Assembly (NCBI GenBank): GCA_964410125.1
Contig: CAYPGQ010000006.1
Span: 29,194 to 93,193, forward strand
Length of the DNA: 64,000 nt
Source of the DNA: an uncultured Eubacteriales bacterium
GTDB taxonomy: Bacteria; Acidobacteriota; Aminicenantia; Aminicenantales; Aminicenantaceae
Direction: 5' to 3'
Shown: one piece after another, positions 25,892 to 43,437 of the stretch
Numbering within the stretch: position 1 is the first letter of the stretch
How the letters are laid out: each line of letters starts with the position of its first letter
Made by a program: the position numbers and the translations under genes
Notes under the pieces: model-generated
The model's database searches: none
Told to the model about the DNA's origin: nothing
What the model saw: the letters and a program-made list of their open reading frames with translations, nothing else

Positions 25892-25962
25892 TTTTTTTTA
25901 ACTCGATCTCAGGACAATAAGACAGGATAGTATATTAAGCCTTTTCTGTCCATCTTTTTTAT

Positions 25963-26082
25963 CCTGAATTATTTATTAAAACGGCTGATTTCCTCATTAA
26001 TTTTCATGAAAACTGAATTTTAAAATAATCCTAAAATACAATCAGCCGTTTTTACCCTTCGGGCGAGCCAATCTTACTGCAT
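25963..26082. repeat. intergenic repeat element of about 120 nt, copy A
   Basis: It starts CCTGAATTATTTATTAAAACGGCTGATT. It has an internal inverted repeat (AACGGCTGATT/AATCAGCCGTT). It ends TTTTTACCCTTCGGGCGAGCCAATCTTACTGCAT. Copy B at 47786-47902 has the same ends and the same length. Confidence 0.7.
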
Positions 26083-26179
26083 ATGAATTTTTTATAAAGG
26101 TTCTCTCCCATATTGTGTCGGTAAACTTAAAGGCTAAAGTCTATAAGGCATGTCCTGAGCGACATTGAGGATTTAGCCT

Positions 26180-28018: not shown

Positions 28019-28317
28019 GGTTCCTCCTCACCCTCTTCACAAGCGATATGCTCGCGCAATTCTTTCACCGTATCAGAAAAGTTTACCATACAGCCTAGAA
28101 ACGATCCACTCTCCTCAGCTAGGTTATTCGTGATACTGGTGTGCCAATACGATCGAGCCCGTTCCCAAATCAGGTGATTTTCCCGGCTTAACTCGGTTAT
28201 AAGGTCCTTCATTTCCTCTAGCTGACCTAATATGTTGTCTCGAAGCTCCTCAAGCCTATTAACCGCTAAAACCTTGTCTTCCTTATCTAAAATAATCATG
28301 TTAATTCTCCTTTTCAA
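28000..28317 (-). CDS. hypothetical protein (island)
   Basis: The 105-aa ORF is co-oriented with the integrase gene and overlaps its start. No motif was recognised. Confidence 0.45.
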   Translation of the reverse strand: MKRRINMIILDKEDKVLAVNRLEELRDNILGQLEEMKDLITELSRENHLIWERARSYWHTSITNNLAEESGSFLGCMVNFSDTVKELREHIACEEGEEEPCQDKK

Positions 28318-28591
28318 ATAACGTGGAAATAATTGAATCGACGTCTTCAGGGATTACCGCATACAGGCTTTTGACGCCATGGACGATTCGCTGAACCAGC
28401 AGGTAATCGTTAGGAGCATGCGCCATTTGGGTAGGCCACATTTTCCTTACGGCATCCCCAAAGCCCAGCACCTTTCCAATCATTAGGGTATTTGCGCCTG
28501 TCCACTCATTCATTGCCCAGAAACGAATCTGGTCACCTTTCCTTGGCTTTTGTTTTTTCTTTTCCTCCATTGTGTTCACCATTTTGTTCAC
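28301..28591 (-). CDS. hypothetical protein (island)
   Basis: The 96-aa ORF is co-oriented and overlaps the downstream ORF by 17 nt. Confidence 0.45.
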   Translation of the reverse strand: MNKMVNTMEEKKKQKPRKGDQIRFWAMNEWTGANTLMIGKVLGFGDAVRKMWPTQMAHAPNDYLLVQRIVHGVKSLYAVIPEDVDSIISTLFEKEN

Positions 28592-28773
28592 CTTTTTATT
28601 TTATAATAAGTTTCATTATGTGAAAAATCAAGGAGCTTTCAAAAATAATTTAAAATCGGAAGGAATTAGCCCCGAAATACGCTGTATTTGGCGTTCTACG
28701 TTTATTTACGAAAAGAAGGAGTATTTATCCATAGGATAAGGTTGAGGGAATGTAAAGTGTGCGTATAGCGTGG

Positions 28774-29988
28774 CTATTTTCCGAGAGCGTCAGAAAGAAA
28801 AGAACCTTTGATATGGCTATCTATTTCAGAATCCTCGCAAGTGAATCTTATCCGGTTCCAATAAGTCCCGATTGCTTCTTCTAAGAAATGCCTTACTATC
28901 TTCTGGCCATCCTGGTTACAGATAAGCTTCTTCCTCACCTTGAGCCGAGCAGCATCATCCTTTGAATCTACAGATTCCTGTATCTTTTTTATCGTTGCTC
29001 CTAGCTTCTCATAAATTTCCAAGAGCTGAGGGAAGTATAGAAAAACCCCTTTTCTCCAGGTGATATGGAAACTGTTTAATACAGCTTCGTTTCCTTTTTC
29101 TTTGACAGCGTGCTTGAGTAAGATATTAGCCGTATACAAATCCCTAACCGCGTTCGACATGAAATCAATAACATCGCCATCCAACTGTTTGTAAAGGTTC
29201 TTGAATTCAGAATCTGTGCATTTATAATCTTTCGTAACATCTCCCTTTTCATCGATGCGATGAATTTCTTGATACTTCCAGTTGCCGTAACCACCACGCT
29301 TATCCAAAACCTCCATCTTCCCTTCCTTCTTTAAGATGCGATCCCTTTCCTGTTGCCTCTTCTTCTCTTCCTTCTTACTTTCCTCATTTTCCTGGTCTCT
29401 TTCTCGAAAGCATTTTTCATAAAATGCCTTAACAGCCGCACGAGAGATAGATGTATTTCCTGCCTTGAGTTTCTTTAGAGTTTTCTCAGGGGCATACTCA
29501 TTAATAAGCTTCACTCTGTAAATTGTGTCTGTGGAGAGACCTGCAATAGTAGCAACTTCTTTTAAAGTGTTAATAGGTTTTTCAGATTTCTTAGAAACCT
29601 TTTTTGGATGCCCTTTACCGTATTTTTTCCCTGACTCTCGTTTCTTCTGCTCGGCCCTTTTCTTTATGTAAGGTTCGAGTCTTAAAGCTAAAGTGGCCCG
29701 ATCGTAATTAGTGAGATTCCTTCTAGCGAATTGATTATAGATAATCCAGAGCCTTGCCGCTTCCCGGTTTTTAAGTTCTTTGGTCTTATCTATTACTGGG
29801 TATTTGATGTTGTGCTTTTGGCAAATATTAAACCTGTTATTTCCATCCAGGATACGCCCTTTCCATACGGTGATGGCATCCTTGCATCCTTCATTGAGGA
29901 TGCTTTGTTCCAAATCCTTATACTCTACCTTGGTGAGGGATCGCATAAGAGATTGAAACTCTTTGTCGATTTTGAATTCTTCACTCAT
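28774..29988 (-). CDS. ParB N-terminal (ParB/Srx) domain protein with an HTH and a long unknown C-terminal region
   Basis: The N-terminus has the ParB-like ILDGNNRFNICQKHNI (DGxxR) motif, a mid-protein HTH (LKEVATIAGLSTDTIYRVKLI), a K/E-rich linker and an unassigned C-terminal half of about 190 aa. Confidence 0.7.
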   Translation of the reverse strand: MSEEFKIDKEFQSLMRSLTKVEYKDLEQSILNEGCKDAITVWKGRILDGNNRFNICQKHNIKYPVIDKTKELKNREAARLWIIYNQFARRNLTNYDRATLALRLEPYIKKRAEQKKRESGKKYGKGHPKKVSKKSEKPINTLKEVATIAGLSTDTIYRVKLINEYAPEKTLKKLKAGNTSISRAAVKAFYEKCFRERDQENEESKKEEKKRQQERDRILKKEGKMEVLDKRGGYGNWKYQEIHRIDEKGDVTKDYKCTDSEFKNLYKQLDGDVIDFMSNAVRDLYTANILLKHAVKEKGNEAVLNSFHITWRKGVFLYFPQLLEIYEKLGATIKKIQESVDSKDDAARLKVRKKLICNQDGQKIVRHFLEEAIGTYWNRIRFTCEDSEIDSHIKGSFLSDALGK

Positions 29989-30216
29989 GGTTATACCCCT
30001 TTTCTGTTTATCAGAAAAAAAATAATATATGAAGGTGTGGTGGAATTCAATCCTCTTTAGGGATGATTTAGAGGGTGATTTTGAAAGAGCGTACGTTCAT
30101 CCGTATAAATAGGTTGAGCCAGTATCGTTTGCCGTTTTATGCTACGCTCTATACCAGCTAAGTATGGCATGTGCTAGTATAAGAAGTGGTTGTGAGGTGT
30201 GTGATAGGCTTTTGAA

Positions 30217-30444
30217 CTATATTTTTCTCTCTATCCAGAGACAATGATTACAAGAGTTAAATCCATTCTTTTTGGCTTCGTCTAGGTCAGTGAACATTCT
30301 TATAAAATCGGGGTTGATATTATCAATTCCACAATTAGGTTTTTCTTGTAATAGGTCGTGAACAAGATTAGTGCTCGTGTCGGCACAATATTGCCTTCCA
30401 TAAAAAGGTTTTCCTGGTCGGATTCTACGTACCATTTTCATCAC
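30217..30444 (-). CDS. hypothetical small protein
   Basis: The 75-aa ORF ends with C-x-H-C (SCNHCLW). No family was recognised. Confidence 0.4.
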   Translation of the reverse strand: MMKMVRRIRPGKPFYGRQYCADTSTNLVHDLLQEKPNCGIDNINPDFIRMFTDLDEAKKNGFNSCNHCLWIERKI

Positions 30445-30473
30445 CTCCCGTCTTTTGCCGAAAAAAAAGTTTT

Positions 30474-30926
30474 TTAACGCCCCATTGAATAAGCAGTAGG
30501 TCTCTCAAATAATATATTCGCACCCGCAAAAACAAGAAGAAAGAAAATTCCTAAGAAAAAGAAAACACCACACCACTTTATTTGATTTTTTAATTTCGTT
30601 TTGAGGGATTCAATCTCTTTACCTGTTGGTCTTCCCTCGATTGGAAAATTCCACCCCCACATTTTTTCCATAGAAGTGATGTAACTTTTCATCACTAGCA
30701 ACGAAAAAAACAACGAGACTGAAAAGCATACTAACGACACCAAAATAACTTCTTTCCAAACTGGATTCTCAAAGGCACGTTCCATAAAAGCCACCACAAG
30801 GATAAACGCACCTGTGTTGAGAGTTGTCATATTTTTGAAGTAGTCGTATTGATGTTTAAGAGACTCAAGTTGGACTTTGATAAATTCTATTGTGCGTTTT
30901 TCTTCAGTTGATAATTCTGTGCTCAT
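30474..30926 (-). CDS. hypothetical membrane protein (about 3 TM)
   Basis: Hydrophobic segments include GAFILVVAFM, VILVSLVCFSVSLFFSLLVM and CGVFFFLGIFFLLVFAGANIL. Confidence 0.55.
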   Translation of the reverse strand: MSTELSTEEKRTIEFIKVQLESLKHQYDYFKNMTTLNTGAFILVVAFMERAFENPVWKEVILVSLVCFSVSLFFSLLVMKSYITSMEKMWGWNFPIEGRPTGKEIESLKTKLKNQIKWCGVFFFLGIFFLLVFAGANILFERPTAYSMGR

Positions 30927-31153
30927 CGAGTCCTTCCTTCCTGTGGTTTAGGCAGTTCGGTGACCTTCACAGCTATCGGTAGAGTTCCCTCAAAAGCATC
31001 GAAATTGACATCAAGTATTTTCACACTCATACCCACACTCTGTTGTTCTGATGCCAGTAAGCTGCTACTGCCGACTGCAAAATCCTTCACACAAAGCCAT
31101 ATCAAACACAATGCGATAATGGTTAAAATGATTTTGGTGTACCTGTCGTTCAT
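30923..31153 (-). CDS. hypothetical small membrane-anchored protein
   Basis: It has an N-terminal TM segment (IILTIIALCLIWLCV) and a 4-nt overlap with the downstream gene. Confidence 0.45.
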   Translation of the reverse strand: MNDRYTKIILTIIALCLIWLCVKDFAVGSSSLLASEQQSVGMSVKILDVNFDAFEGTLPIAVKVTELPKPQEGRTR

Positions 31154-31209
31154 ACTGACCTCCTTTTTTTATTTTTATTAGATTCCCTTGAATATTTTTA
31201 TCTAAAATA

Positions 31210-31509
31210 TTAGTCACGACCAACAACTTTTGCTATACCAAACAAAATCATGATAACAATCCACAAACCATAAACAACTGTAATCGGAAACCAATTGCCC
31301 CAAACTGCTAGAGCATAAATTGGAGCTACTGCAAGAACCACAGGAAAGATTATCAAACTAAGAAATGCTGCCACTGGCCCTAACACTTCGTTGACGATTC
31401 GGATGGATATTACTAAGGTAAACAATCCCCCAACCATCATGATTATCATGGCTAATCCATAGATTGCATTTTCAAAAAGACCTCTAATCTTATCTATAAG
31501 TTTTCCCAT
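31210..31509 (-). CDS. hypothetical membrane protein (3 TM)
   Basis: I chose the start at ATG 31509 because an AGGAGG lies 5 nt upstream. Three hydrophobic helices are present. Confidence 0.55.
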   Translation of the reverse strand: MGKLIDKIRGLFENAIYGLAMIIMMVGGLFTLVISIRIVNEVLGPVAAFLSLIIFPVVLAVAPIYALAVWGNWFPITVVYGLWIVIMILFGIAKVVGRD

Positions 31510-31577
31510 GAAGACCTCCTTTCGCTTTGCTGGCAATATTTTAGTAATTGAGGATGAGGGTTGTCAACCTGTGTGGA

Positions 31578-32111
31578 TTACATAAACTGCGGGAATATCT
31601 TTTCATTCATAGTTCTATCCAATCGCTGGTCTTGTAGTTGCTCAAAGTAAACCTGAGCGCTTGCGATATTTTTATGCCTGAGCCAGTTTTGGATGAAGAT
31701 TGCGCTGGAGCCTTCTTTTGCCATTGCCATGGCGCATGAATGGCGTAACGAGTGAATACTATAAGCGTTCGGGATTCCGGCATTCTTGGCGTGCGTCTTA
31801 AACCGGTATTGCATCGCAGTCGTGGTTACTGGAAATAACCGTTTCTTAATTTTGTTCACCTTTACGTATTTTGCAATTTGCTGATAGAGAGCATCGTCTA
31901 AATCGTAGCTCCTCGTTCTACCATTCTTAACGCCGGTTATAATTATTTGCCTACTTTCGAAATTGATGTGCTTTACTGAAATGTTGCAAAGCTCCTGCAC
32001 CCTCAGCGCATATCGGAAACACAGTTTAAACGCTATAATATCTCGCTTGTTTTTACTGCGGACGATGGCTTTGTCTAAATCCTTGATTTGTTGTTGTGTG
32101 AGGTATTTCAT
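31578..32111 (-). CDS. short tyrosine recombinase (catalytic domain only, 177 aa)
   Basis: The catalytic residues appear as ALRVQEL (R), GVKNGRTRS (K), HSLRHS (H-x-x-R) and LRHKNIASAQVY (H...Y). There is no N-terminal core-binding domain. Confidence 0.8.
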   Translation of the reverse strand: MKYLTQQQIKDLDKAIVRSKNKRDIIAFKLCFRYALRVQELCNISVKHINFESRQIIITGVKNGRTRSYDLDDALYQQIAKYVKVNKIKKRLFPVTTTAMQYRFKTHAKNAGIPNAYSIHSLRHSCAMAMAKEGSSAIFIQNWLRHKNIASAQVYFEQLQDQRLDRTMNEKIFPQFM

Positions 32112-32882
32112 TTTAGAGTCTCCTTTAAATTGATTTGTTTATGGCTAGTCGTATACCGATATCTGTGTGTAGGGCGTTGTTCGGTATTGTGTACATATTT
32201 GTATGATCTCGCGCTATTTTGCTCCTGAGCTATATATTTGCATCGGTGTGTTGTGGAAAAGGTTTTTGTTCGAACGTGCCGCATCTTCTTCCCCGAAAAC
32301 AACTTAGCCATGATTTATATTATGATACTTCTACAGAAACGCCAAGGAAAATCTTTTCAGGATTCTATTATTCTATGAACGGATTCTAATCCGCTATATC
32401 ATAGCCGACCTGAAATAGTGCTTCATATTACCCCTCAATTCCAGCCCCATCTGCCAGATATAACACCGGCTTTTCGTTAGTGAAAGAGCCTCCTCCTGGC
32501 TCTGCTTGATATAACCCTCCATGTATTAGGGTGGAGCCCCATACAATCTACCCTTATACAGTCGTAGAGGGAGCCAGACTAATACCTCTTCCCAGATATA
32601 GAACTGTTATTGATTGTCCCAGATATGGGCAAATTGATTCGGTGTGCTTACTCTTCTTTACAGACTCAACCGATTCTTTACGATAGTAGACCGATTATGA
32701 AGGTTACGCCACCCCATATAACGTCGAGCTTTCTCTTTTTTCTTTTCTCTCATTCTATCTCTCATCATAGCCACTGAAGAGCTACTCTTTTACTGGCTAT
32801 TTACAAGATTCCAAATGGATCCTACTTATTCTATATTGAATATTAAATGAATATAAATCTTATACATAATATGACTACCCCT

Positions 32883-33446
32883 TTAATAGGGAGCCCTCTC
32901 CTCTATATCCCCTTTCCAGGTTCTTGGTCCAATTCTCTTTCCTTCCTCAATTCTCTTTTCCCTTATCCTTCTTACCCTCACCTGAAACCTCTTATCGGTC
33001 GTTCTTTCTTTAATGAATTTCTCTAAACTCTTTGCCTCAAATCGAACGCCAAAACCGACTTTCAAATAAGGCAGCTCTCCCTTATATATCCACTTATAAA
33101 AAAAGCTGTCACTTAAATCATATCTCCGCATTGCCACTGGGATATTAATCAGGGATTCTATCACCGGACCTTTCTCCAGCTCTATCTCCCTATACACTGC
33201 GATCATGCATTCCTCTTTAAGCCATTTATTTACTTCTCCGATTCTCCACATCCATTGCTTATACTGGGGACTTGAAAACTCATCCGGTTTTGGCAGGTAT
33301 TTATCTCGATGCCATCTATTCAAAGTCTCTCTTGTGATCCTAAAATATAGACTCAGTTCTCGCATGCTGAGAAGGTGTCCGCTTAACAGAGCTACTCTAA
33401 TCATCTTCCTCTTCTTTATCTCTGTGAAAATAATCAGGGGGCGCAA
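32883..33446 (-). CDS. DNA-binding protein with two excisionase/MerR-like HTH_17 segments (candidate excisionase/RDF)
   Basis: The two segments are MRELSLYFRITRETLNRWHRDKYLPKP and MRRYDLSDSFFYKWIYKGELPYLKVGFGVRF. The start is uncertain; internal ATGs lie at 33404 and 33365. Confidence 0.6.
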   Translation of the reverse strand: MRPLIIFTEIKKRKMIRVALLSGHLLSMRELSLYFRITRETLNRWHRDKYLPKPDEFSSPQYKQWMWRIGEVNKWLKEECMIAVYREIELEKGPVIESLINIPVAMRRYDLSDSFFYKWIYKGELPYLKVGFGVRFEAKSLEKFIKERTTDKRFQVRVRRIREKRIEEGKRIGPRTWKGDIEERAPY

Positions 33447-33594
33447 TTTGCGGATATGGCTTGTTTTGCCAGATCGTGCCGCCTTTTACTATTCTGTTTA
33501 GTTCGGTAAGCCTATCTTCAACACAAAGGATGCAGTCGCCGAGCAAATAGTGTCGATGCTCTAGGTCTTCGTTCTTATCAAATAAAGCCACCAA
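33397..33594 (-). CDS. hypothetical small protein
   Basis: The 65-aa ORF is co-oriented. It overlaps the longest version of the downstream ORF. Confidence 0.3.
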   Translation of the reverse strand: MVALFDKNEDLEHRHYLLGDCILCVEDRLTELNRIVKGGTIWQNKPYPQIAPPDYFHRDKEEEDD

Positions 33595-33776
33595 TTCTGC
33601 CTTTATTTTTCTAACACTTTTATTACTTCTTTCATTCTTAAAACTCCTTCATTTTCTCTCTTCATAGTTTTGGATGAGGGGGCTACGCTTGCAGCCCCCT
33701 CGATTGCTTGGAAACTTAGCACGTAACGCCTCTTGGTAAAACGTTACATTATCTGTAACAAAGACCCATTATCTTA

Positions 33777-33968
33777 TTATGTTTCTGTTACTTCGCCAAC
33801 GATTTGTGCGTTGTAGACGCCCTGTTGAGCCGGAACGACATCCCCGACAGCTCTTTTTATCTTAGCGCGAAAAATCGTCACATTCGCTTCCGAATCAACG
33901 ATGGTTTCCTCGTCCAGTTTGGTGTATTTCACAGTTAACGAATACGTCTTTGTAAAATCTGTAGCCAT
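33777..33968 (-). CDS. hypothetical small protein
   Basis: The 63-aa ORF is co-oriented. No motif was recognised. Confidence 0.4.
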   Translation of the reverse strand: MATDFTKTYSLTVKYTKLDEETIVDSEANVTIFRAKIKRAVGDVVPAQQGVYNAQIVGEVTET

Positions 33969-34026
33969 TTTATTCTCCTCTAATCTCGTTTATGAGCCCC
34001 GTACTCGCAACGCTCATAACTATAAA

Positions 34027-34272
34027 TTAATCTTGGTTATGCGCTTCGGCAACACGAAGAGTTCTGCCACCCACCTCTTTGCCATTTAATCCTGCGATGG
34101 CAGCGTTGGCTTCGGCATCATTTGGCATACTGCAAAACCCGTAACCTCTCGGTTTCCCAGTTTCTCGCCAAGTGCAAACTATAAGGCTTGCGACTTCCCC
34201 GTATTCCTGGAAAAGTGCCTTTAATTCCGCGTCGGTTGTTTCATAGTTTAGATTTCCTATATAGATTTTCAT
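34027..34272 (-). CDS. RRM-type RNA-binding protein
   Basis: RNP-2 (IYIGNL) and RNP-1 (RGYGFCSM) motifs are present, and the protein ends GRTLRVAEA, as in single-RRM bacterial Rbp proteins. Confidence 0.8.
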   Translation of the reverse strand: MKIYIGNLNYETTDAELKALFQEYGEVASLIVCTWRETGKPRGYGFCSMPNDAEANAAIAGLNGKEVGGRTLRVAEAHNQD

Positions 34273-34514
34273 TTTCTTGTTTTTCTCCTAGTTCGTTTTT
34301 CTTTCACGCTTATCGTCCTGGCGCTTGCCATACCCTTTGAAACGTTCAGAACAAGCGATTCTTTTACTTGTTTTTCTAATTCCTGAAAATGCACATTGCT
34401 AGCTGTATTTTGATTGAATCTTATCTCGACCTCAAAAATTTTATTCATTTTACTCCTGTTATAATTATGCTCGATTTGGGTTTTTATTCTGAGACGCATA
34501 GCCGTCTTGGACAT
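34269..34514 (-). CDS. hypothetical small protein
   Basis: The 81-aa ORF has a 4-nt overlap with the RRM gene start. Confidence 0.4.
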   Translation of the reverse strand: MSKTAMRLRIKTQIEHNYNRSKMNKIFEVEIRFNQNTASNVHFQELEKQVKESLVLNVSKGMASARTISVKEKRTRRKTRK

Positions 34515-34809
34515 TCTCGATTAGCAAATTTTCCTCTGGATATCCCGGAAGAATAATTTGGCTTATTTTTGCCTTTGCTTTTCTTAGCATAAGGTCCACA
34601 TCCACAATTTCACTATGCCTTTCTGCTTTCGTAAGCTGAACTAGGGCATAGAGCTTTTGCGGGTGGGCAATTTCTACTCGGGAAACCCATAGTTTAGTAC
34701 CCCTCTCAGACACCATTTTTATTTTCTCAAGATGCTCCACTAAAGACGGCATCGTTTTTTGGATTCCCGTGCGGAGCCAAATTGTTAACCAGCTTTCCCA
34801 AGATGTCAT
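34465..34809 (-). CDS. hypothetical protein, paralog 1 of a tandem pair
   Basis: SWESWLTIWLRTGIQKTMPSLVEHLEKIKMVSERGTKLWVS aligns with the neighbouring ORF. Confidence 0.5.
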   Translation of the reverse strand: MTSWESWLTIWLRTGIQKTMPSLVEHLEKIKMVSERGTKLWVSRVEIAHPQKLYALVQLTKAERHSEIVDVDLMLRKAKAKISQIILPGYPEENLLIENVQDGYASQNKNPNRA

Positions 34810-34835
34810 TTTTTATTCTCCTTTGTTTATAGTTT

Positions 34836-35183
34836 TTATAAATGAATGTGTCCGTCATATATGCGTTTTACGATCGGTTTACCCTCGTGTCTCAACTCCC
34901 CAAACATCCCTCTTAATTTTCGATGGGTCCTTTCGATTAGACCACCGCCAAAACGGTCTTTATTATTTGCCAATTTCCATTTCACGTGAACTTGAATCCC
35001 AACTCCTGTTGCTTCCGAAATCCAACACTTTGTTCCGCTATTGGATTCAAATCGGATAGCGCGAATTTGGTCAAGCAAATCGGGCATACTTTTCTGGAGC
35101 CCCGTTGAAAGCTCAAGTGTATTCCACTCCTCCCAGGAATGATGGGTCCCGTATTGGTCAGCATTCTCTTTTGTCAGTAACAT
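34836..35183 (-). CDS. hypothetical protein, paralog 2 of a tandem pair
   Basis: SWEEWNTLELSTGLQKSMPDLLDQIRAIRFESNSGTKCWIS aligns with 34465-34809. Confidence 0.5.
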   Translation of the reverse strand: MLLTKENADQYGTHHSWEEWNTLELSTGLQKSMPDLLDQIRAIRFESNSGTKCWISEATGVGIQVHVKWKLANNKDRFGGGLIERTHRKLRGMFGELRHEGKPIVKRIYDGHIHL

Positions 35184-35205
35184 TTTTTATCTCCTTAATA
35201 ACTAT

Positions 35206-35898
35206 TTATTCAATAATTCTTTTTCCCCCAGCGATTCTACGCTCCTCAAAAGTGAGTCCATCCTTGACCGCTTCTATAGTTTTCTTTTCTTTTTCCAGTT
35301 TGTAATAGCCCGCAGCCCGTTGCTCCTGGAGCAGTAACACATTCACTTTCGGGTCCTGTTTTTTCTGATCATTATTTCCAGATTCTAAAGCTGAATTCAA
35401 CGACTCAAGCATCGCTGGACCGATATGCATTCCTGAACTTGGCGTATGTACGATATCAGCTGATTTCATATCATAGTTATCCTCGACTATGCCACCAGCA
35501 TTTACTTTTCCAATTCCAACTGTTGATGCACCGCACTTTACCCCTGATTTAATCAGCGTCAATAAATCAGCACCTTTTTGGGTATTTAGGATTCTTGCCT
35601 TAGCTTGAGCTAATCCATCTTTAAAGAAAAATTCCGTAAATACGTGGCTGACTTTATCTAACGCAATTATGCCATCCGGGTTATGCCGAAGCATGCCCGG
35701 CACCGGTCCGAGTTTTAATTTTATATTCATTTTACCCATCTCCCTTTTCAAAAGAGCAGTCGGGTAAGTTCTTTTGTTGTTATTTTCCACCCCGCCTTTA
35801 GCGAGCGGAACCGTTAAGTTTGCCAAAAATAGTTTTTTATCCTTCGCTTCACTTAATTCGATTTTTGATTCAAAAATATCAGTTATTTTAGTTGTCAT
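35206..35898 (-). CDS. putative phage prohead protease/scaffold-like protein
   Basis: The pattern N.N.R.YP..LL...(P.MLRH)...GLAQAKARIL.T.KGADLL.LIKSGV..GASTVGIG resembles HK97/XkdF-type prohead proteases in its His...Ser arrangement. The C-terminus is charged. The assignment is tentative. Confidence 0.4.
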   Translation of the reverse strand: MTTKITDIFESKIELSEAKDKKLFLANLTVPLAKGGVENNNKRTYPTALLKREMGKMNIKLKLGPVPGMLRHNPDGIIALDKVSHVFTEFFFKDGLAQAKARILNTQKGADLLTLIKSGVKCGASTVGIGKVNAGGIVEDNYDMKSADIVHTPSSGMHIGPAMLESLNSALESGNNDQKKQDPKVNVLLLQEQRAAGYYKLEKEKKTIEAVKDGLTFEERRIAGGKRIIE

Positions 35899-36047
35899 AG
35901 TTATCTCCTATTGTGAAAAGAGACGGGACCGGAAGGAGGTTGCCAAACGGCCCCGCCCATGAGATTGAAAATAGACAAGAGATGGGGAATGTTGGAAGGG
36001 ATTCCATCCCCACCAAATGGAAAAATTAAAGACCTTTAAAAACATTG

Positions 36048-36437
36048 TTATTTCTCTCCAAATTTTAAACCGCGTATAAACCCATGAAGAAACGCTTCAT
36101 TATCGGTCGTCCAATTTGCTTCCTCGTCAACGCTTGGAACTATAACCTCCGCGACTTCTAAAGCCAACGTTTGGAATTCCTCATCGGTGCAAGCGTCCAT
36201 CGCCTCCAGCGCTAGCCGTAACGTTTTTTCCTCCCGGATGGCGGTTTGGTGTAAACGCCATAATCCAAGCGCTTCTTTTAACAGCTCGCCCACGTCCGTA
36301 TTCTGTGGCAATTGCTCAAATGCCTTTTCTCGCTCTTCAAACTCTTCAAACGCCTTGCCGTAACGCTCGATAAGATCTTCGAGCACGATATGTAATTGGT
36401 CTTGATTCTTAATTAAACACTTTTCTTCATCTGCCAT
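36048..36437 (-). CDS. hypothetical acidic protein
   Basis: The 129-aa ORF is E/D-rich and helical. No motif was recognised. Confidence 0.45.
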   Translation of the reverse strand: MADEEKCLIKNQDQLHIVLEDLIERYGKAFEEFEEREKAFEQLPQNTDVGELLKEALGLWRLHQTAIREEKTLRLALEAMDACTDEEFQTLALEVAEVIVPSVDEEANWTTDNEAFLHGFIRGLKFGEK

Positions 36438-36481
36438 TGGTTATTCCCTGATATATATAAGCCAGGATTTTTCGAAATCCA

Positions 36482-37372
36482 TTATTTTTCGCGATTTTCA
36501 TGGAAAATATTTTTAATCTTTTTAATCAGCGTTTTTGTCTTTTCAGTGTTTCTCATAACTTCTAATTTATTCCGACTGGGCGCGGCATATCCTCTAATCC
36601 TTTGCGAATCAGGCACCACAATATAGTTTTTATAAAACATTCTCATTTCCCGTATCGCAATTTTGCTTTCTTCTTTGTCCATCTTGTATAGTTTAGCTGC
36701 CTCATTTTTCAGTGCTGTATTTGCCAGATCCTCCCTCGACTCAAACTCAAGCGAGATAAGATTTTGGAAATCTTTTACTGAAAAAATTATAGCTTTAAAG
36801 AAAAGCGTTGACGGGAAACTATAAGCTAGGAACCTAGCCATCAAAGGGTCGCTGGCAAATTTCTTTATCAAATAAGCTTTGAGGTATCGCGGATCAGCAG
36901 AATGCGCTAATGCCTTTTCCAAAGCATCCTGTGAAACTATATCCAAAATGCCATCCTGATTTTTTGTATTCTGACGCTGAATTGTCCCAGCCTTATTCGA
37001 ATCAGCTATTGCACCAAGACCATCCTCACCTTCTATAATTGGTAAATTTCCGATACTTGAAACTATATTTAACCTCGTTTTAAATGTCCTGAGAAGCCAG
37101 TATGCTTTGATATCAAATTTCTTGTATAGTTTTTCGTTCTCCAAAGTTTGTAATGCTACTCGATTTTTCTTTACCCATTTGCCCTGTGAGAATAGCTCGT
37201 CGAAAAGCATCTGCTCGGCATCCACATCCCTATATCGCAATACATACTCGACCTTTCGCCGAATATAGTTTTGGATTTCTTTTAGCTCTGTTTTGTTGAT
37301 CTTTATTTTGCGCTGGTTTAAGATAACTTTGCGGATTGCTGAGATAATCAGTCTAGAGTTGTAGGACGGCAT
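36482..37372 (-). CDS. hypothetical protein
   Basis: The 296-aa ORF is co-oriented. No motif was recognised. Confidence 0.5.
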   Translation of the reverse strand: MPSYNSRLIISAIRKVILNQRKIKINKTELKEIQNYIRRKVEYVLRYRDVDAEQMLFDELFSQGKWVKKNRVALQTLENEKLYKKFDIKAYWLLRTFKTRLNIVSSIGNLPIIEGEDGLGAIADSNKAGTIQRQNTKNQDGILDIVSQDALEKALAHSADPRYLKAYLIKKFASDPLMARFLAYSFPSTLFFKAIIFSVKDFQNLISLEFESREDLANTALKNEAAKLYKMDKEESKIAIREMRMFYKNYIVVPDSQRIRGYAAPSRNKLEVMRNTEKTKTLIKKIKNIFHENREK

Positions 37373-37698
37373 TGTTATTTCCTGGTTATTTACCTATTAG
37401 CGCGGTATAGGAAGCACTTTATCGGTTGCTCCATATATCCTTAACACTGAGACATTTATTTCCTTTTAAAATTGAAGATTAAACCGTTGCCAGTTTACTG
37501 GTAATGGTTTTACACCAGCCGGTTTCCGGATGGTGATAGAGTATCGGCTAATCTCTTATTTTGGATAGCTATCAAAAACACCGCTTCCTTCTCTTTAATT
37601 CTTATTAAAGAGTATTAATACTCTTCTTAATACTATATATATATTTACGTTTATTCTTATATGGTAAGGATATATCTTACTCATGACTAAGATATATC

Positions 37699-38124
37699 TT
37701 AATCACTGCCTTCCTTTTCCTTACGGAATTTCTCTTCCCACTCCCATTTTTCAACCGCAATATTGGCTTGCTCAACGTACCCATTCATATCTTTTTCAGA
37801 AATTACTTCATTCTTAAAGCCATGAAGGATAGTAAGATTTGTTTTCATTACTCCTCTTCGATATCTGGTAGCCCAACCCTTCTTTTCTAACTCGCGCCAG
37901 AGTGTGGAAACGTGCTGCTCGCTTTTATTCATAACCTTGCTAAGTTTTGCATTACTTGCCCACGTTATTCCTTCAAAATTTGCAATCCTTGCAGCTACGA
38001 CGTATAAAAAGCGGGCAGATACCCCAACATCCGTATCGTCGATTACCTCGTACGGAATTTGCGCGTTATTGGTTTTGAATCTGTTGACTAAAGCAAGCGG
38101 TTTATTAGAGCTGTATTTCTTCAC
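37699..38124 (-). CDS. winged-helix DNA-binding protein (replication-initiator/regulator-like)
   Basis: ARFLYVVAARIANFEGITWASNAKLSKVMNKSEQHVSTLWRELEKKGWATRY is a typical wHTH segment. It lies next to a palindrome-rich non-coding region. Confidence 0.55.
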   Translation of the reverse strand: MKKYSSNKPLALVNRFKTNNAQIPYEVIDDTDVGVSARFLYVVAARIANFEGITWASNAKLSKVMNKSEQHVSTLWRELEKKGWATRYRRGVMKTNLTILHGFKNEVISEKDMNGYVEQANIAVEKWEWEEKFRKEKEGSD

Positions 38125-38413
38125 GGACTAAACTCTCCTCTTCGATTAAAGTGGCTACGGCTTCCCTTCCCCGAGCAACCACTTCTGTTGTTCGCTCATT
38201 CTTTTTCCAGCGCGTCTTGAATCGAATGGCAACTATATCCCCATCCTCCAAACGAAAAGCATGATATCTTGCTTTCAATGCCTCATCCAGGTTATCGGGT
38301 GTACTTGCAATCGCAAAGCGTTGATTATTCTTACAATGGTCGTGAAGAAAATCAACAAGGCATAGAGTGTCCTGGAAGATGAAACTCTCCTTTTGGAAAT
38401 TAAATCTAACCAT
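38105..38413 (-). CDS. hypothetical protein
   Basis: The 102-aa ORF overlaps the wHTH gene start by 20 nt. Confidence 0.45.
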   Translation of the reverse strand: MVRFNFQKESFIFQDTLCLVDFLHDHCKNNQRFAIASTPDNLDEALKARYHAFRLEDGDIVAIRFKTRWKKNERTTEVVARGREAVATLIEEESLVREEIQL

Positions 38414-38761
38414 TTTTTTACTCCCTATTTATTTTATAATTTTTCCTCACTTGATTTTTTGATTATTGGTTGCCCCTTTCTATGTTATTGAATCGGTTAT
38501 ATTTGTATTATATGAAATTTTGCTTGGATCATCAAGGATTATTTTTAGCCGGTGGCTACTGGAAAGGGTAATTCCCTCAACCTATTTATATTCCACACCG
38601 ATCGTTCTTTGCGTATACGCGCGTAAAACCGGTGTATTTTACTGATAATATGGTAGGGATTGACAAATGTTAGGTTATTAAACAATTCCAATGACATGAT
38701 GAGATTTTTCAGATTTCAAAAAAACCTAACAAGTGAGGTTTTTAAGAACTGAATTCAGTAA

Positions 38762-40033
38762 TCAGTAAATAGGGGATGTATTTATTTGAAAATGTTTATT
38801 TCTAACTGTATCAATTCGCTTTTCTAAGATATCTTTTCCAATTTCTTTTATGCTCTCTTCGAAGATATGTTTAACTGCATTCGATAATGAATACCCCTTC
38901 CTCTGTAATATATATATAGCAGCAAAATTATCTAAAGAAAATCTTTGGAATAAATCTAATTTACCGTAAGCTTCAATATTTTCAATCTCATAAAATGGCA
39001 TATCTTGATAATCTAATAAGATATCTCTGGAAAACATTAAAAGCGATAATAAATTTTCCTTGGATGCTTTTTCATCGACAATTGGATTCTTATTATATTC
39101 TACATCTTCAACTCCAGCTGTTATTGCTCCAAGCCTACGGACAATACATCCATAACAAGTTCCATCATGTTTTCCAAAGCGCTGAGTAATACAAGAATAA
39201 GTCTTTTTAAATTCCCCCTTAAATTTTGAAAGAGCCATTACTTCAGCTTTAGTCATATTTTCGAAGGGAGTAATAATTTTAATCTTCTTCTTAAGTAATA
39301 ACTCAAGAACTTTATGCGAGATTTCGACAGTCACTGGATGGGTTGTCATCGTGACTTCATCATACGGCCCAAATCTTGGTTGATACATAGTGGGTCCACA
39401 TTCAGAAACAATAAGAGTATCAGAATTCAGCAAGCTCATCCATGCTCCAGCTGATATCATATATAGAAAGCCTCTTAATTGAGAATATCCTCCTTTAGTT
39501 AAAGATGGTACATAAATTGTCTTCAGCTTAATTCCAGTTAGAGATAAAAAATCCTTTAATAAAGAATTTACTATATGTATATTCCACGCTTGGTCTGAGT
39601 GAGCACAAAATATCCCCACAACATTATTGAAATATTCTTTAGCCCAAGTTATTCCACTAAAAGAATCTATGCCCCCAGAAAAAAGAACAGATATATACGG
39701 ACTCTCTGGTTTTTTATAATCGAACTTCTTTTTATTCAACTTCTTTTTTGATTGAATAAAATTAATATCTACATCTTTTAAAAGAATATAAGATATCAAC
39801 TCAGAAAGAATATTTTTTAATTCACTCTTGTGATTTTTTGTAAACCGCTCTATATGAAATTGACTAATTCTATCTCTTTTTGCTAATTTTTCTAATTCAA
39901 AAATACCATAAGCGATTGAGAGAATATCTCGAGATTTTATATATTCTTCATAGTTAAAAATTCGCATTTGAGGAGCTTGAGAAAGCCTAAGATGAAATTC
40001 ATGGATTTCATCAGAATCTGATTTTTTATTCAT
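38762..40033 (-). CDS. QueC-like PP-loop ATP pyrophosphatase with an unknown N-terminal domain of about 110 aa
   Basis: The PP-loop VLFSGGIDSFSGITWA matches QueC VVFSGGQDSTTCLFWA. RGFLYMISAGAW...LIVSEC, ITPFENMTKAEV and the C-terminal Cys cluster SCITQRFGKHDGTCYGCIVRRLG resemble the QueC zinc site. Confidence 0.8.
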   Translation of the reverse strand: MNKKSDSDEIHEFHLRLSQAPQMRIFNYEEYIKSRDILSIAYGIFELEKLAKRDRISQFHIERFTKNHKSELKNILSELISYILLKDVDINFIQSKKKLNKKKFDYKKPESPYISVLFSGGIDSFSGITWAKEYFNNVVGIFCAHSDQAWNIHIVNSLLKDFLSLTGIKLKTIYVPSLTKGGYSQLRGFLYMISAGAWMSLLNSDTLIVSECGPTMYQPRFGPYDEVTMTTHPVTVEISHKVLELLLKKKIKIITPFENMTKAEVMALSKFKGEFKKTYSCITQRFGKHDGTCYGCIVRRLGAITAGVEDVEYNKNPIVDEKASKENLLSLLMFSRDILLDYQDMPFYEIENIEAYGKLDLFQRFSLDNFAAIYILQRKGYSLSNAVKHIFEESIKEIGKDILEKRIDTVRNKHFQINTSPIY

Positions 40034-40302
40034 CGTCTGAAAGCTCTTAGTGCGGCACCTATAGAAGAATTAAAGGCTGTTCTGAGAAGAGTCTCATCTT
40101 CTAAATTTGAACCATGCTTTTGCATATAATATCGAGCAGCATGTTTTGCAATCCCATCAAAATTTCGTTTCAGAAGTGCGCTATCACCTTTCTGTAAGAG
40201 TGCAAAATAAGGTGAGTTTTCTTTGGATTTTATCATGGCATGACATTCTTCTCGAAATATTTCTTCTATTAAGAAAGAGCACTCCTCACAAGTAACACTC
40301 AT
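40030..40302 (-). CDS. hypothetical 90-aa protein (cassette gene 3)
   Basis: It has 4-nt ATGA overlaps with both neighbours and N-terminal cysteines (TCEEC...EEC). No family was recognised. Confidence 0.55.
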   Translation of the reverse strand: MSVTCEECSFLIEEIFREECHAMIKSKENSPYFALLQKGDSALLKRNFDGIAKHAARYYMQKHGSNLEDETLLRTAFNSSIGAALRAFRR

Positions 40303-40664
40303 TTTTTTATTCTCTTTAGAGCCCTACTCACTGCGTCTACAACTCCAATATCAATAACTCTATTGGATATTAGCCTTTCTTCCTCTTTTTTCTCGGCCCA
40401 ATCGACTCTTACTTTTCTGCTTATTTCTTTTATCACTCTGAGTTCCTGTGGAGGGTATTTATCTTTTATATCGGATAATAATTTCTTCGAAAAAAGATAT
40501 ATTTTAACTATATCTCGGTGTTCAGGTATTAATTTGACAGAACTTCGAGCAATGCCACCAATATCTCTTTCTTTCAAAGATTTTGTAAGCGCATCTCTTT
40601 TTTCTAGAGCTCTTTGACTTTCTCCCACAACTTCCCTAATTGAATATGCTCTGCGGCCACCCAT
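40299..40664 (-). CDS. hypothetical 121-aa basic protein starting Met-Gly-Gly (cassette gene 2)
   Basis: It has a TAATG overlap with the upstream gene and an ATGA overlap with the downstream gene. No family was recognised. Confidence 0.55.
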   Translation of the reverse strand: MGGRRAYSIREVVGESQRALEKRDALTKSLKERDIGGIARSSVKLIPEHRDIVKIYLFSKKLLSDIKDKYPPQELRVIKEISRKVRVDWAEKKEEERLISNRVIDIGVVDAVSRALKRIKK

Positions 40665-41203
40665 TATAATTTCTCCATTAAATTAATAAACTCATCTTTA
40701 TATTTTCTTTCAGCGCTATTAAGATGGGAATTAAAACATAACAGACATACAGAAAAAAGCACACAAATAAAAATAGGTATAAATTCTCCGGGAATTTTTA
40801 TAATTAGAATTTTTATTTTGCAATTATCTTCAATGAAATAATTAACTGTTCCTGATAAAAAAAATGAAATTGTTAATGCGAATATGAGTTTATATTTAAT
40901 CTTGTATAGAGATTCTATTTTACCTCTTTCCTTATCTAAACTAATAAATTTTCCTATTATATTCACATCCTGAACTTCTTGGAGAGTTTCCTCTTTTAAT
41001 AAGGCATTTAATGCTTTTAATTTCTTTATAGGAGAAGTTTGAGCTCTAAGCAGTGGTCTAATTTTTTCCCACTTAATATTGCGCTTCATACTAAAATCCC
41101 TTTCCGCCTCTACTGTGTCTTTATGCCAGCTTTTTATTTGCTCACTCCAACCTATCAACACCAATAAAAGAATTACCCCAGTGCCTATTAAAAATTCATC
41201 CAT
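40664..41203 (-). CDS. hypothetical 3-TM membrane protein (cassette gene 1; candidate effector)
   Basis: The TM segments are FLIGTGVILLLVLIGW, LIFALTISFFLSGTVNYF and FIPIFICVLFSVCLLCF, with a charged helical loop between TM1 and TM2. Confidence 0.6.
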   Translation of the reverse strand: MDEFLIGTGVILLLVLIGWSEQIKSWHKDTVEAERDFSMKRNIKWEKIRPLLRAQTSPIKKLKALNALLKEETLQEVQDVNIIGKFISLDKERGKIESLYKIKYKLIFALTISFFLSGTVNYFIEDNCKIKILIIKIPGEFIPIFICVLFSVCLLCFNSHLNSAERKYKDEFINLMEKL

Positions 41204-41407
41204 TCTTAATATAGAAACTCCGAATAAAAATATGTCAGATTACTATTTTTCATTTGTTTTCCCATCATCTTAAAGCTGTCATTTATAATAAAATAAAAAA
41301 TGTTTTTTTTCAAGAAAGATTCAAATTTAAACCTGCTACAATACCCATGGCTTTCTTGTATCGACTGGTCAAATAAGCTCAAGTAAGAATAAAATCTACA
41401 TGCCGAT

Positions 41408-41614
41408 TCATCCCGTATGGCATTCTCTGGAACAAAAAAAGCAACCATTCGACTGCTGGTAATGCTTTTTTGCTTCCTTTACGGCATCATGACAGGTATT
41501 AAAAGATCCAAGATAGAGCCTGTTTTCTTCAGAGGGGAGATAGTCGCAATCTTGCTTATGAACTTCATGGTCTCCATTCGTCTGAGCCTTTTTGTTGACA
41601 TAATAAGACGCCAT
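41408..41614 (-). CDS. small Cys/His-rich conserved hypothetical protein (68 aa)
   Basis: YYVNKKAQTNGDHEVHKQDCDYLPSEENRLYLGSF..CHDAVKEAKK.YQQSNGCFFCSRECH has four Cys plus His. I recall this pattern from widespread uncharacterised small proteins. Confidence 0.6.
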   Translation of the reverse strand: MASYYVNKKAQTNGDHEVHKQDCDYLPSEENRLYLGSFNTCHDAVKEAKKHYQQSNGCFFCSRECHTG

Positions 41615-41669
41615 AGCAAACCTCCTTTTTTTACTTATTCCACTATAAAATGTACTTCAGCAGCAACTC

Positions 41670-41738
41670 ATGTCAATAATTCTTGAAGAAATGTCACTTT
41701 ATTTCACATTATGTCACTTTATGTCATATGAAATGACA
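41670..41738. promoter_or_regulatory. operator-like ATGTCA repeats in a divergent promoter region
   Basis: ATGTCACTTTAT occurs twice (41691 and 41711). Further ATGTCA copies lie at 41670 and 41721, and TGTCAT/ATGACA form an inverted pair (41722-41738). Confidence 0.45.
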
Positions 41739-41935
41739 ACAAAACCGTCTGTTTATTCTATCTGATACCCTTAATCCTATTTACAACTGTCAAAACACAC
41801 TACAACACCCACGATTCTCCTCTCCCGTCTGGAGAGAGTTCCCATCTTTTGGTTCCCATCAATTACCCCTTAGATTCGATGGCAGCCGGTAACATATTCA
41901 TTTAGATTGTTGGCATAGCAATATAAAAATTAGTT

Positions 41936-41944
41936 TGATATAAT
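41936..41944 (+). promoter_or_regulatory. extended -10 promoter element (TGATATAAT)
   Basis: A TGnTATAAT match lies about 55 nt upstream of ATG 42000. Confidence 0.45.
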
Positions 41945-41999
41945 TTCATACAGAAATGAGGAGGGCGGTTGAGTTATTATCTTAATTTTGGAGGGTAAA

Positions 42000-42326
42000 A
42001 TGGGATGGGTACCAATTAAATGTTATCTTTGTGATAAAGATGCAGAACAATGGAATTATGATCCCCCTGATTTTATGGTGAGGTCTAAACTTTCTTCAGA
42101 TAAACCTTGTGAATGTGGATTTTATAAACTTATTAGCCATCTAATAAAATTTAGAATGGATGACAAGAAAAAATTGCTTACAAAAAACAAGACTCCTCTT
42201 ACAGAAGCACAAAAAAAGAGTCTCGCTGATTTTGTTAAAAAAAATCAAGATCCAACAGGCAAAAATCCAGTGACGATACATTTAGCCAAGTATGACAATC
42301 TTATCTTACGAAGTTTAGAGGATTAA
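42000..42326 (+). CDS. hypothetical Cys-containing protein (108 aa) upstream of the HEPN gene
   Basis: ATG 42000 follows a GGAGGG RBS. CYLC...CEC is a possible zinc-binding site, and the C-terminal half is K-rich. Confidence 0.55.
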   Translation: MGWVPIKCYLCDKDAEQWNYDPPDFMVRSKLSSDKPCECGFYKLISHLIKFRMDDKKKLLTKNKTPLTEAQKKSLADFVKKNQDPTGKNPVTIHLAKYDNLILRSLED

Positions 42327-42402
42327 ATGACCTTCTTCAGGAGTGGTCGCCTCACTAGATAGACGGATGAGGAGGAAGGGAATTCTCAGGAAAGGATAAA
42401 AA

Positions 42403-42930
42403 ATGAAAAGAAAAAAATTATTACTAAATGGAGAAACTTTTGATGAAGACTTGGCAAAAAAGTTTCATGATGAACTTAATGGAGAATCAATAAGGGCAGC
42501 TGTAATTTGTGGCTTTGCTTATATAGAGAGTCTGCTAAAAGAATTATTACAAAGAAAATTGGTTAAAGACAAAGAAACGTTTAAACGTATTGATATAATG
42601 GGACTCGAAAAAATATTAAGTCTGTGTTTTTGTTTAGGAATTATTAGCAAAGAAGAAAGGAGTGATTTAAAGATCTTAAGTAAGATAAGAAATGAATTTG
42701 CACATGATTGGGAAGTTAATAAATTTGAAAATATCACTATTGGAAACAAATTAGACAATCTATATATTGTTACTCATATAAAAATATGCAGAAACGAAAA
42801 ATCCTTTCCTATTTATAATTCAAAGGAGAAATATCTCTCAGCCATAAATGCATACTACTTAATATTCCATTGGAGACTTCTTCAGAATGGCAAAAGAATA
42901 AAAGCGCGCGAAAATTATTATGCTATATAA
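42403..42930 (+). CDS. HEPN-superfamily protein (MtlR/DUF4145-like)
   Basis: The R-x4-H motif occurs in LSKIRNEFAHDW. The helical N-terminal part ESIRAAVICGFAYIESLLKELL is typical of MtlR-like HEPN domains. Confidence 0.7.
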   Translation: MKRKKLLLNGETFDEDLAKKFHDELNGESIRAAVICGFAYIESLLKELLQRKLVKDKETFKRIDIMGLEKILSLCFCLGIISKEERSDLKILSKIRNEFAHDWEVNKFENITIGNKLDNLYIVTHIKICRNEKSFPIYNSKEKYLSAINAYYLIFHWRLLQNGKRIKARENYYAI

Positions 42931-43437
42931 GACACAATCGCGGATACACGGGCGAGAGAATAATCGCCATTTACCCAATATAGTCCCAAAAATGTCGAGA
43001 GACTGAAAATCTCTATCGACCATTACTCTAACAACTCTTTCAGCTCAGATAAATTCCTAATAATATTTGGATTGGTGTATCAAGTATTCTTTTTAGGAAT
43101 TCCTTTATCAACTGTTAAGCTAGAATTGTTTGAAGCTCTCTGAGCGTATTATGCACCCTAATCGATGAGTTAATAAAGTTCAAAAATTCGGGTACCCGAT
43201 AGAGTCGGGCGGCAAGGATGTTTTGAGCACGACTTTGTTTGAGAATAAAAGATCCGGACAAGCTCGGGAACAGAGGCTGGAGTGGAGGAGATTGGGAGTT
43301 AACGTGCGCAGTTCCGCAACCGCCGAGAAGGATGGTGAGTGAATGGCGTTAAAAATCGTCACTAAAGTGAAGGACATGTCTGATAGAGTATGGATACATA
43401 ATCAAAAAAGGTCCACGCAATATAAAAGAGAAGCTTT

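Follow-up and report, generated by a model that had tools for sequence, protein, structure and literature searches.

The 64,000-nucleotide stretch of contig CAYPGQ010000006.1 analyzed here (the window) comes from an uncultured bacterium of the Aminicenantaceae and carries on its minus strand a compact cassette of four genes. According to the list of open reading frames (ORFs), these encode a 179-residue protein with three transmembrane (TM) segments (41203-40664), a 121-residue protein that begins MGGRRAY (the MGG protein; 40664-40299), a 90-residue protein (p90; 40302-40030), and a 423-residue PP-loop enzyme (40033-38762). Reading the sequence across the gene junctions, which are TAATG, ATGA, and ATGA, gives overlaps of 1, 4, and 4 nucleotides. 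An earlier, sequence-only reading of the window had described this arrangement as an operon in the most A+T-rich part of a genomic island. All of its coordinates and junctions were reproduced, and the cassette (31.5% GC; island, 38%; flanks, 45-48%) coincides with the lowest-GC 2.4-kb stretch of the entire 64 kb, which begins at 38601. Directly 3' of the enzyme stop codon, RNA folding detects a hairpin with a U-run (38753-38718, minus strand) at -13.2 kcal/mol (z = -2.77), a stability matched by 3 of 200 shuffled sequences; it is plausibly the intrinsic terminator of a four-gene operon. At the 5' end, a consensus scan alone places a promoter-like site of the sigma-70 type (TTGAAA-17-TATTAT; 41313-41285, minus strand) about 80 nucleotides upstream of the first gene, but such sites are approximately as frequent in the region as in shuffled sequence and constitute weak evidence. 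A terminator-like site at 41457-41440 was not taken as an operon boundary, since it falls within an upstream ORF of 68 residues.

The last gene of the cassette encodes an enzyme with an N-terminal extension (residues ~1-110), a QueC-like core (~112-310), and a C-terminal extension (~311-423). The core displays the motifs SGGIDS (residues 119-124), ECGP (211-214), TMTTHP (228-233), and PFENMTK (256-262), followed by the cysteines C281, C293, and C296. Every motif that had previously been quoted as evidence for a QueC-like PP-loop ATPase is present, and the Pfam QueC profile scores above its gathering cutoff (5.8e-11), with a match that covers only residues 234-302. More specific models place the protein outside both established families: the QueC equivalog TIGR00364 yields 32.3 bits relative to a cutoff of 150, and the NCBIfam QatC equivalog NF041925 yields 53.1 bits (E = 2.3e-14) relative to a cutoff of 280. 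The PADLOC QatC model matches at 3.6e-7. A homolog search with the enzyme returned 346 matches, with full-length relatives of ~400-455 residues; the top 120 each scored above 340 bits, and none of them bears an informative name.

In an alignment of 31 family members, the invariant positions comprise SGGxDS (119-124), H145/D147/Q148, Y183xQxRG, E211xGPTxYQP, T228xT230xH232P233, P256....T261K262, the three cysteines listed above, and R299. The best solved relatives retrieved with the family profile are the QatC chains 9vlk and 9zee, and the QatC sequence TRTTHP aligns with the invariant TMTTHP of the family. A profile-profile comparison by hhalign with QatC-like proteins gave a 99.8% match (E = 1.4e-27) over 300 columns that start within the N-terminal extension, at an identity to QatC of about 20%. 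Published hallmarks of QatC are two invariant threonines that replace the Tyr/Asp pair binding 7-carboxy-7-deazaguanine (CDG) in QueC and Cap9, the sequences HP and P(x)4TK, the zinc motif CxxCxxRR, and additional domains at both ends of the protein (PMC13279940, PMC13329287). This remodeled site (SGGxDS, ExG, TxT..HP, P(x)4TK, CxxCxxRR) is invariant throughout the 31 members. Because the QatC-defining motifs and the profile-profile match are both present, the enzyme is, by sequence, a distant member of the QatC clade and not a queuosine enzyme. The earlier description as QueC-like therefore holds for the core and can be narrowed to a QatC-clade protein with a TxTTHP site.

The second gene encodes a protein in which a five-helix bundle comes after a flexible peptide, MGGRRAYSIREVVG, at the N-terminus. 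A word-indexed homolog search for this protein and p90 reached only close relatives, and an exhaustive HMMER search was needed. For the MGG protein, it recovered 37 clusters at 50% identity, all of 118-125 residues apart from one fusion, and all aligning from residue 1. Across 38 diverse members, M1, G2, and W89 are the only invariant residues. In a pool of 66 distinct sequences, composed of the HMMER members and of copies extracted from genomic and metagenomic loci, Met1-Gly2 is universal (66/66), and R4 (63/66), an arginine or lysine at position 5 (62/66), and G14 (59/66) are nearly so; the N-terminal consensus is MGGR[RK]..S[LIV]..[IV]VG. The family is strongly basic, with a median isoelectric point of 10 and a net charge of +12. 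AlphaFold2 modeling based on a 38-sequence alignment produced a confident structure (pLDDT 91.3, pTM 0.80), in which the first ~8 residues, of lower confidence, precede the compact five-helix bundle; with only 7 sequences, the pLDDT was 45 and the model was not usable. A Foldseek search with the model found nothing significant in BFVD or in the PDB copy used, which extends to 2026-04-08 and may lack QatB structures (best E values, 1.4 in the PDB and 1.9 in BFVD). The family sequence profile has no PDB match, QatB chains included, and hhalign gives 2.4% against QatB-like proteins, indicating that the two are not homologous. The sequence-only reading had recognized no family for this protein or for p90, in agreement with searches of Pfam, NCBIfam, PADLOC, PHROGs, and the PDB; what escaped it was the invariant Gly2, the most telling feature of the cassette.

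A glycine in this position is the modification or docking site in the two QueC-family systems characterized to date. In the type IV cyclic oligonucleotide-based antiphage signaling system (CBASS), Cap9 ligates a 7-deazaguanine carboxylate (NDG) to the Gly2 alpha-amine of CdnD, which has the N-terminus MGGSGGS (Wassarman et al. 2025, bioRxiv 10.1101/2025.04.06.647259). In QatABCD (Gao et al. 2020; QatB-QatC structures 9zee and 9vlk), QatC binds QatB, and the N-terminal MGTS tail of QatB enters the QatC active site (PMC13279940, PMC13376578, PMC13639016). According to the published Qat work, defense requires the MGTS motif and is lost upon G2D mutation, QatB and QatC suffice for it on their own, and QatC does not complement a queC deletion. 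Both protein-modifying systems, Cap9-CdnD and QatC-QatB, are anti-phage, and the principle was published in 2025-2026. The feature that defines this functional class, an intact PP-loop enzyme adjoining and translationally coupled to an invariant-Gly2 partner with a flexible tail, is present in the cassette. The MGG protein is thus almost certainly a functional analogue of QatB and CdnD and is proposed to be the N-terminal-glycine acceptor of the enzyme; with no detectable relation to QatB, it would be an analogous rather than a homologous Gly2 partner, much as QatB and CdnD themselves share no ancestry.

The helical p90 is specified by a positionally conserved gene of ~90-110 codons, found at the same place in all full loci. 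Its sequence is only weakly conserved, yet the family is homologous, as a hidden Markov model (HMM) built without the window copy scores that copy at 21.8 bits. A metagenomic protein of 210 residues (P0141) is a natural fusion of an MGG protein (residues 1-116, 68.8 bits) to a p90 protein (119-190, 31.6 bits). This fusion provides good evidence that the two proteins interact, which makes p90 a likely binding partner. To QatB (hhalign 0.8%) or to any PDB chain, the p90 family shows no relation. A split QatB, with the MGG protein and p90 together equivalent to QatB, was rejected at the profile level, given the hhalign values of 2.4% and 0.8% and the absence of PDB sequence matches.

The first gene product has three TM segments, as proposed earlier and confirmed by hydropathy. 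Its family shares a common architecture, in which TM1 with the sequence LLGWSDQI is followed by a helical loop of ~80 residues containing 14-20 lysines and arginines; TM2 and TM3, joined by a short loop, come next, and the C-terminal tail of 19 residues contains a glutamate (E165) that is invariant in the family alignment. Hydropathy and the positive-inside rule predict an N-out topology that places the basic long loop and the C-tail in the cytoplasm. In agreement with this orientation, acidobacterial versions have N-terminal extensions that are Pro/Ser-rich and resemble signal peptides. Weak and inconsistent matches to DUF6608 (0.021), DUF2207_C (3 of 12 members), and MxiC (0.059) were treated as noise. 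At about 25 loci, a homolog is encoded directly before the MGG gene. The protein is a candidate membrane effector or anchor.

The distribution of the four genes was determined in loci sampled from GTDB species genomes, metagenomes, viral contigs, and exact-match contigs, using six-frame translations compared with HMMs of the four proteins. The order TM, MGG, ~90-residue protein, enzyme is that of the window and of 24 other loci (L001, 2, 4, 5, 6, 8, 9, 10, 13, 14, 47, 48, L099, 101, 102, 103, 107, 109, 110, 111, 113, 115, 117, and 121), which derive from Acidobacteriota/Terriglobia, a Eubacteriales metagenome-assembled genome, unclassified bacteria, Woesearchaeota, and Nanoarchaeota. The suggestion that the genes would co-occur elsewhere is borne out by this constant order in bacteria and archaea. 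None of the partners was found at 23 distant genomic QueC-like loci, which include canonical QatABCD, or at 50 viral ones (0/73). The HMM of the family enzyme discriminates accordingly: family loci score 272-660 bits, QatC-like loci score 30-81 bits, and nothing outside the family exceeds 81 bits. The fifty viral or proviral IMG/VR contigs (L049-L098) carry distant QueC-like genes of 21-30% identity and at most 81 bits; these are presumably QatC-like, which fits phrog_1550, a 418-position "QueC-like" phage family. A viral origin of the cassette was rejected, since the matches in IMG/VR are confined to QatC-like relatives with identities no higher than 29%.

The surroundings of the family loci, sampled as 23 flanks with 151 ORFs, vary from locus to locus, and no fifth gene recurs. 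They contain a single canonical queC and no recurrent que gene, consistent with the proposal that homologs of the enzyme gene are not housed with queD, queE, or queF. The canonical queC (L006:695-1435; Pfam 2.8e-67) lies ~3-4 kb upstream of the cassette in a Pyrinomonadaceae genome and is probably there by coincidence. Queuosine genes had also been reported missing near the cassette; tblastn searches with QueD and QueE probes found nothing in the 64 kb, and a canonical QueC probe matches only the 423-residue gene. Several flanks encode a prokaryotic Argonaute (pAgo), a complete type I restriction-modification (R-M) system, AbiEii, several methylases with Vsr, two integrases, IstB, or TraG. As the flanks are unrelated between loci, the cassette appears to be a horizontally mobile, self-contained module, and the pattern fits some affinity for defense and mobilome regions.

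Of the known systems, QatABCD is the most closely related. Homology between the enzyme and QatC spans ~300 residues and takes in part of the N-terminal extension; the two share SGGxDS, ExG, TxTTHP in place of the QueC Tyr/Asp, P(x)4TK, the C..CxxCxxRR pattern, and a QueC core that is extended at both termini. In both systems, which comprise four genes each, a gene upstream of the enzyme encodes an all-helical protein with an invariant Met-Gly on a flexible tail. In contrast, identity to QatC is only ~20%, with a score far below the equivalog cutoff, and one zinc ligand differs, such that a QatC cysteine aligns with Asp290. The MGG protein has 121 residues and a tail of ~8-16 residues starting MGGRR, whereas QatB has ~255 residues and a 30-90-residue tail with the pattern MGTS..P....W; neither the MGG protein nor p90 qualifies as a QatB, the Met-Gly start being the only feature common to QatB and the MGG protein. 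The QatA KAP NTPase and the QatD TatD protein are replaced by the 90-residue helical and three-TM proteins. KAP NTPase and TatD domains have no match among the window neighbors and are not among the top families in the 151 flanking ORFs, whereas both are present at L031 and L037, which are bona fide QatABCD loci. Finally, the family described here extends to archaea, including DPANN lineages.

Type IV CBASS shares with the cassette a QueC-family PP-loop enzyme and an operon partner that starts with MGG (MGGSGGS in CdnD, MGGRR here). Cap9, however, is a minimal protein of ~185 residues with the CDG-binding Tyr/Asp (YxDC), as opposed to 423 residues and TxT at the aligned position, and the cassette lacks a CD-NTase, the TGT-like Cap10, the OGG-like Cap11, and a cyclic-nucleotide effector; CD-NTase, Cap10, and Cap11 domains were not found in the window or in the family loci. 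With canonical QueC (PDB 3bl5), the enzyme has in common the Rossmann core with its PP-loop and a C-terminal metal site rich in cysteines, but it differs by the absence of the QueC catalytic and substrate motifs, the lack of a queuosine context, and the additional N- and C-terminal domains of ~110 residues. The cassette, judged by its sequences, is therefore a member neither of QatABCD (no QatA, QatB, or QatD, and an enzyme below the cutoff) nor of type IV CBASS. The sequence-only reading had likewise noted that the partners of both systems (cyclase, TGT, OGG, KAP ATPase, TatD) are missing near the cassette, and had concluded that the gene combination matches no known system. The second point stands insofar as the cassette partners have no models in PADLOC 2.0, Pfam, NCBIfam, or PHROGs, and a full-text literature search of incomplete coverage, which included the Qat structural papers and the surveys of the QueC superfamily and of Qat variants, found no description of the cassette. 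It has to be tempered in that the system is not unprecedented but falls into a known mechanistic class; with the enzyme-plus-Gly2 principle already published, the cassette is not categorically new.

Two other kinds of QatC-clade gene pairs were encountered in the comparison. In the first (L020:5042-7701, L021:4766-7389, L022:4887-7377, and L026:5067-7572; also L018, L028, L030, and L038), a protein of ~260 residues with the N-terminus MGHxRxGxLPxTxxW aligns with QatB, with the same P10/W15 spacing as the MGTS tail, and its gene overlaps the start of a long QatC-clade enzyme gene (570-680 residues). From the N-termini of the ORFs alone, in flanks that were not scanned, no QatA or QatD is obvious. 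Like the cassette, these MGH pairs possess a two-gene core of a QatC-clade enzyme and an upstream, overlapping Met-Gly gene; they differ by their QatB-like partner, their much longer enzyme, and the lack of TM and p90 genes. A publication describing them was not found, and they are apparently undescribed. In the second kind (L035:4896-6927 and L036:4863-6903), a QatB-like protein (MGTSTARKAPTGKFW...) is paired with a QatC-like protein of 436 residues and has no adjacent KAP ATPase or TatD; a conserved 448-residue protein and a 162-residue membrane protein are encoded upstream. Such pairs may represent naturally occurring QatBC-only systems.

In the window, the cassette resides on a low-GC integrative island (~25900-43400) located between rpsF/rplI and pth. 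The island also encodes a large serine recombinase (26180-28018), a truncated tyrosine integrase of 177 residues (31578-32111), an HTH_17 protein (32883-33446), an S77 prohead-protease-like protein (35206-35898), and a replication-initiator-like HTH_36 protein (37699-38124), and it resembles a prophage or satellite-like element that has decayed. The Cys/His-rich 68-residue ORF directly upstream of the cassette (41408-41614, minus strand) is a member of phrog_4298 (1.8e-26). It is also present in identical metagenomic copies of the locus, and no equivalent was noted in other family loci. Its identification as a SLATT_4 or 2TM effector was dismissed, considering E values of 0.07 and 0.02, the strong phrog_4298 membership, and the lack of conservation with the cassette. 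Further upstream and on the plus strand lie a Cys-rich ORF of 112 residues without a family match (41988-42326) and a 175-residue protein of MtlR/HEPN type (42403-42930), which matches MtlR above cutoff, contains RNEFAH (Rx4H), and belongs to phrog_22031; the latter is the HEPN gene that had been noted beside the cassette. Both ORFs are divergent from the cassette in equally low-GC DNA and may form a separate two-gene toxin or defense module.

Based on these data, the favored model is that of a self-contained, mobile four-gene system in which a QatC-clade enzyme modifies Gly2 of a dedicated protein substrate and thereby controls a membrane-linked anti-phage response, a reading to which a probability of about 0.55 is assigned. 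The initiator methionine of the 121-residue protein would be removed, as is suggested by the glycine that follows it, exposing the Gly2 alpha-amine. The 14-residue N-terminal peptide GGR[RK]..S[LIV]..[IV]VG would then dock in the active site of the 423-residue enzyme, which would use ATP and its SGGxDS loop to adenylate a carboxylate co-substrate and pass it to the Gly2 amine. The resulting amide would resemble the product of Cap9 on CdnD and the one proposed for QatC and QatB. Since TxT, as in QatC, takes the place of the Tyr/Asp of QueC and Cap9, the adduct may not be 7-deazaguanine; the TxT site, the lack of que genes, and the occurrence in DPANN archaea together suggest that it need not be a deazaguanine. 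The 90-residue protein would bind the MGG protein as a complex partner, and the modified or unmodified state of this complex would act on the basic cytoplasmic loop and C-tail of the three-TM protein and so control it. The predicted output is a membrane-directed response of the abortive-infection type to phage or other invading DNA.

Several observations weigh against this model. Many of the flanks are housekeeping regions, with a riboflavin operon, a tRNA synthetase, or type II secretion genes, and no family member was found among IMG/VR viral contigs. The TM protein has no robust Pfam, PDB, PADLOC, or PHROG match and resembles no TM-effector family. In a divergent sub-branch (L015 from Thermoplasmata, L016, L112, and L114), the enzyme accompanies a longer MG[GS]R protein (~150 residues, with its own hydrophobic helix) and the ~90-residue gene is usually kept, but the TM gene is missing, which places that gene outside the minimal core; a TM gene is also not detectable in L116. 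The enzyme gene is frameshifted in L014 (5884-7196) and L003 (87-1355) and N-terminally truncated and partnerless in L007 (6034-6882), which indicates that the system is decaying in some genomes; L017 also has no partner genes. The MGG tail is far shorter than that of QatB, and for QatC itself, in vitro reconstitution of catalysis failed. Taken together, the evidence for a defense role of the cassette is suggestive, not strong.

A bolder version of the model would make the cassette a third class of QueC-family immunity, spanning bacteria and archaea, in which a QatC-clade ligase places a carboxylate other than 7-deazaguanine on Gly2 and the MGG protein and p90 together switch the TM effector. 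A chemistry independent of queuosine precursors would be in keeping with DPANN hosts of reduced metabolism and with a cassette that never travels with que genes, but this version is put forward only tentatively.

The most serious alternative retains the Gly2 biochemistry and assigns it a non-immune role, in a membrane-associated regulatory or stress module that acts through N-terminal tagging. The predominance of housekeeping neighbors in the 23 sampled flanks, the absence of the family from viral contigs, and partners dissimilar to known effectors are all in line with such a role. Yet both characterized QueC-family protein-modifying systems are anti-phage, and the cassette of the window, with its anomalous GC content, sits on an integrative element next to a HEPN gene. 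The patchy spread over bacterial phyla and archaea, the GC anomaly, the pseudogenized copies, and the variable flanks, several of them with R-M, Abi, pAgo, or integrase genes, are ill suited to a conserved housekeeping function. On balance, a non-immune role appears unlikely, with a chance of roughly one in five.

Less probable again is a toxin-antitoxin (TA) or addiction module that stabilizes a mobile element, with the TM protein as toxin, the small proteins neutralizing it, and the enzyme tuning them. Small, overlapping, translationally coupled genes that include one for a TM protein, a position at the end of a mobile island, and AbiE and integrase genes as neighbors elsewhere would be expected of such a module. 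However, most loci are not on recognizable mobile elements, the TM gene is dispensable in the sub-branch where enzyme and MG protein are retained, and TA systems do not typically include a 423-residue ATP-dependent ligase whose active site is strictly conserved. The proposal is, moreover, only partly a rival, considering that TA and abortive-infection roles overlap heavily.

A degenerate or rearranged QatABCD is effectively excluded: QatC is the closest characterized relative and QatBC alone can defend, but the QatC equivalog score is low, the MGG and p90 families are not homologous to QatB, neither the window nor any family locus has a KAP ATPase or TatD, the family HMM sets its own loci clearly apart from QatC-like ones, and an architecture that is stable across about 25 loci is not that of a decay product. 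A divergent but genuine QueC or 7-deazapurine enzyme with unrelated small neighbors is effectively refuted, as the Pfam QueC match, the label 7-cyano-7-deazaguanine synthase given by JGI to many homologs, and the canonical queC near one cassette are outweighed by the TIGR00364 score, the replacement of the YPDC Tyr/Asp by TxT as in QatC, which cannot complement a queC deletion, the lack of queD and queE in the window and of a recurring que gene in the flanks, and a strict linkage to three specific partner genes that rules out a chance neighborhood.

The favored model of Gly2 modification coupled to a membrane-linked response would add a third, independent partner set based on the enzyme-plus-Gly2 principle. 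Seen alongside the MGH family, it would present the enzyme-Gly2 pair as a modular core that has repeatedly recruited different substrates and outputs in bacteria and archaea. The cassette is a clean, widely distributed, and previously unannotated system that adds three new protein families, and its components suggest a search signature for DefenseFinder and PADLOC: a gene whose product starts with MG[GS]R[RK], followed by the gene of a QatC-clade enzyme. Its putative substrate is the smallest so far, with 121 residues, a conserved N-terminal peptide of 14 residues, and a confidently predicted fold, and the cassette also offers a candidate membrane output. A substrate of this size could make QatC-type chemistry directly testable and, if the cassette does represent a third immune class, would provide a tractable model for the QatC reaction.

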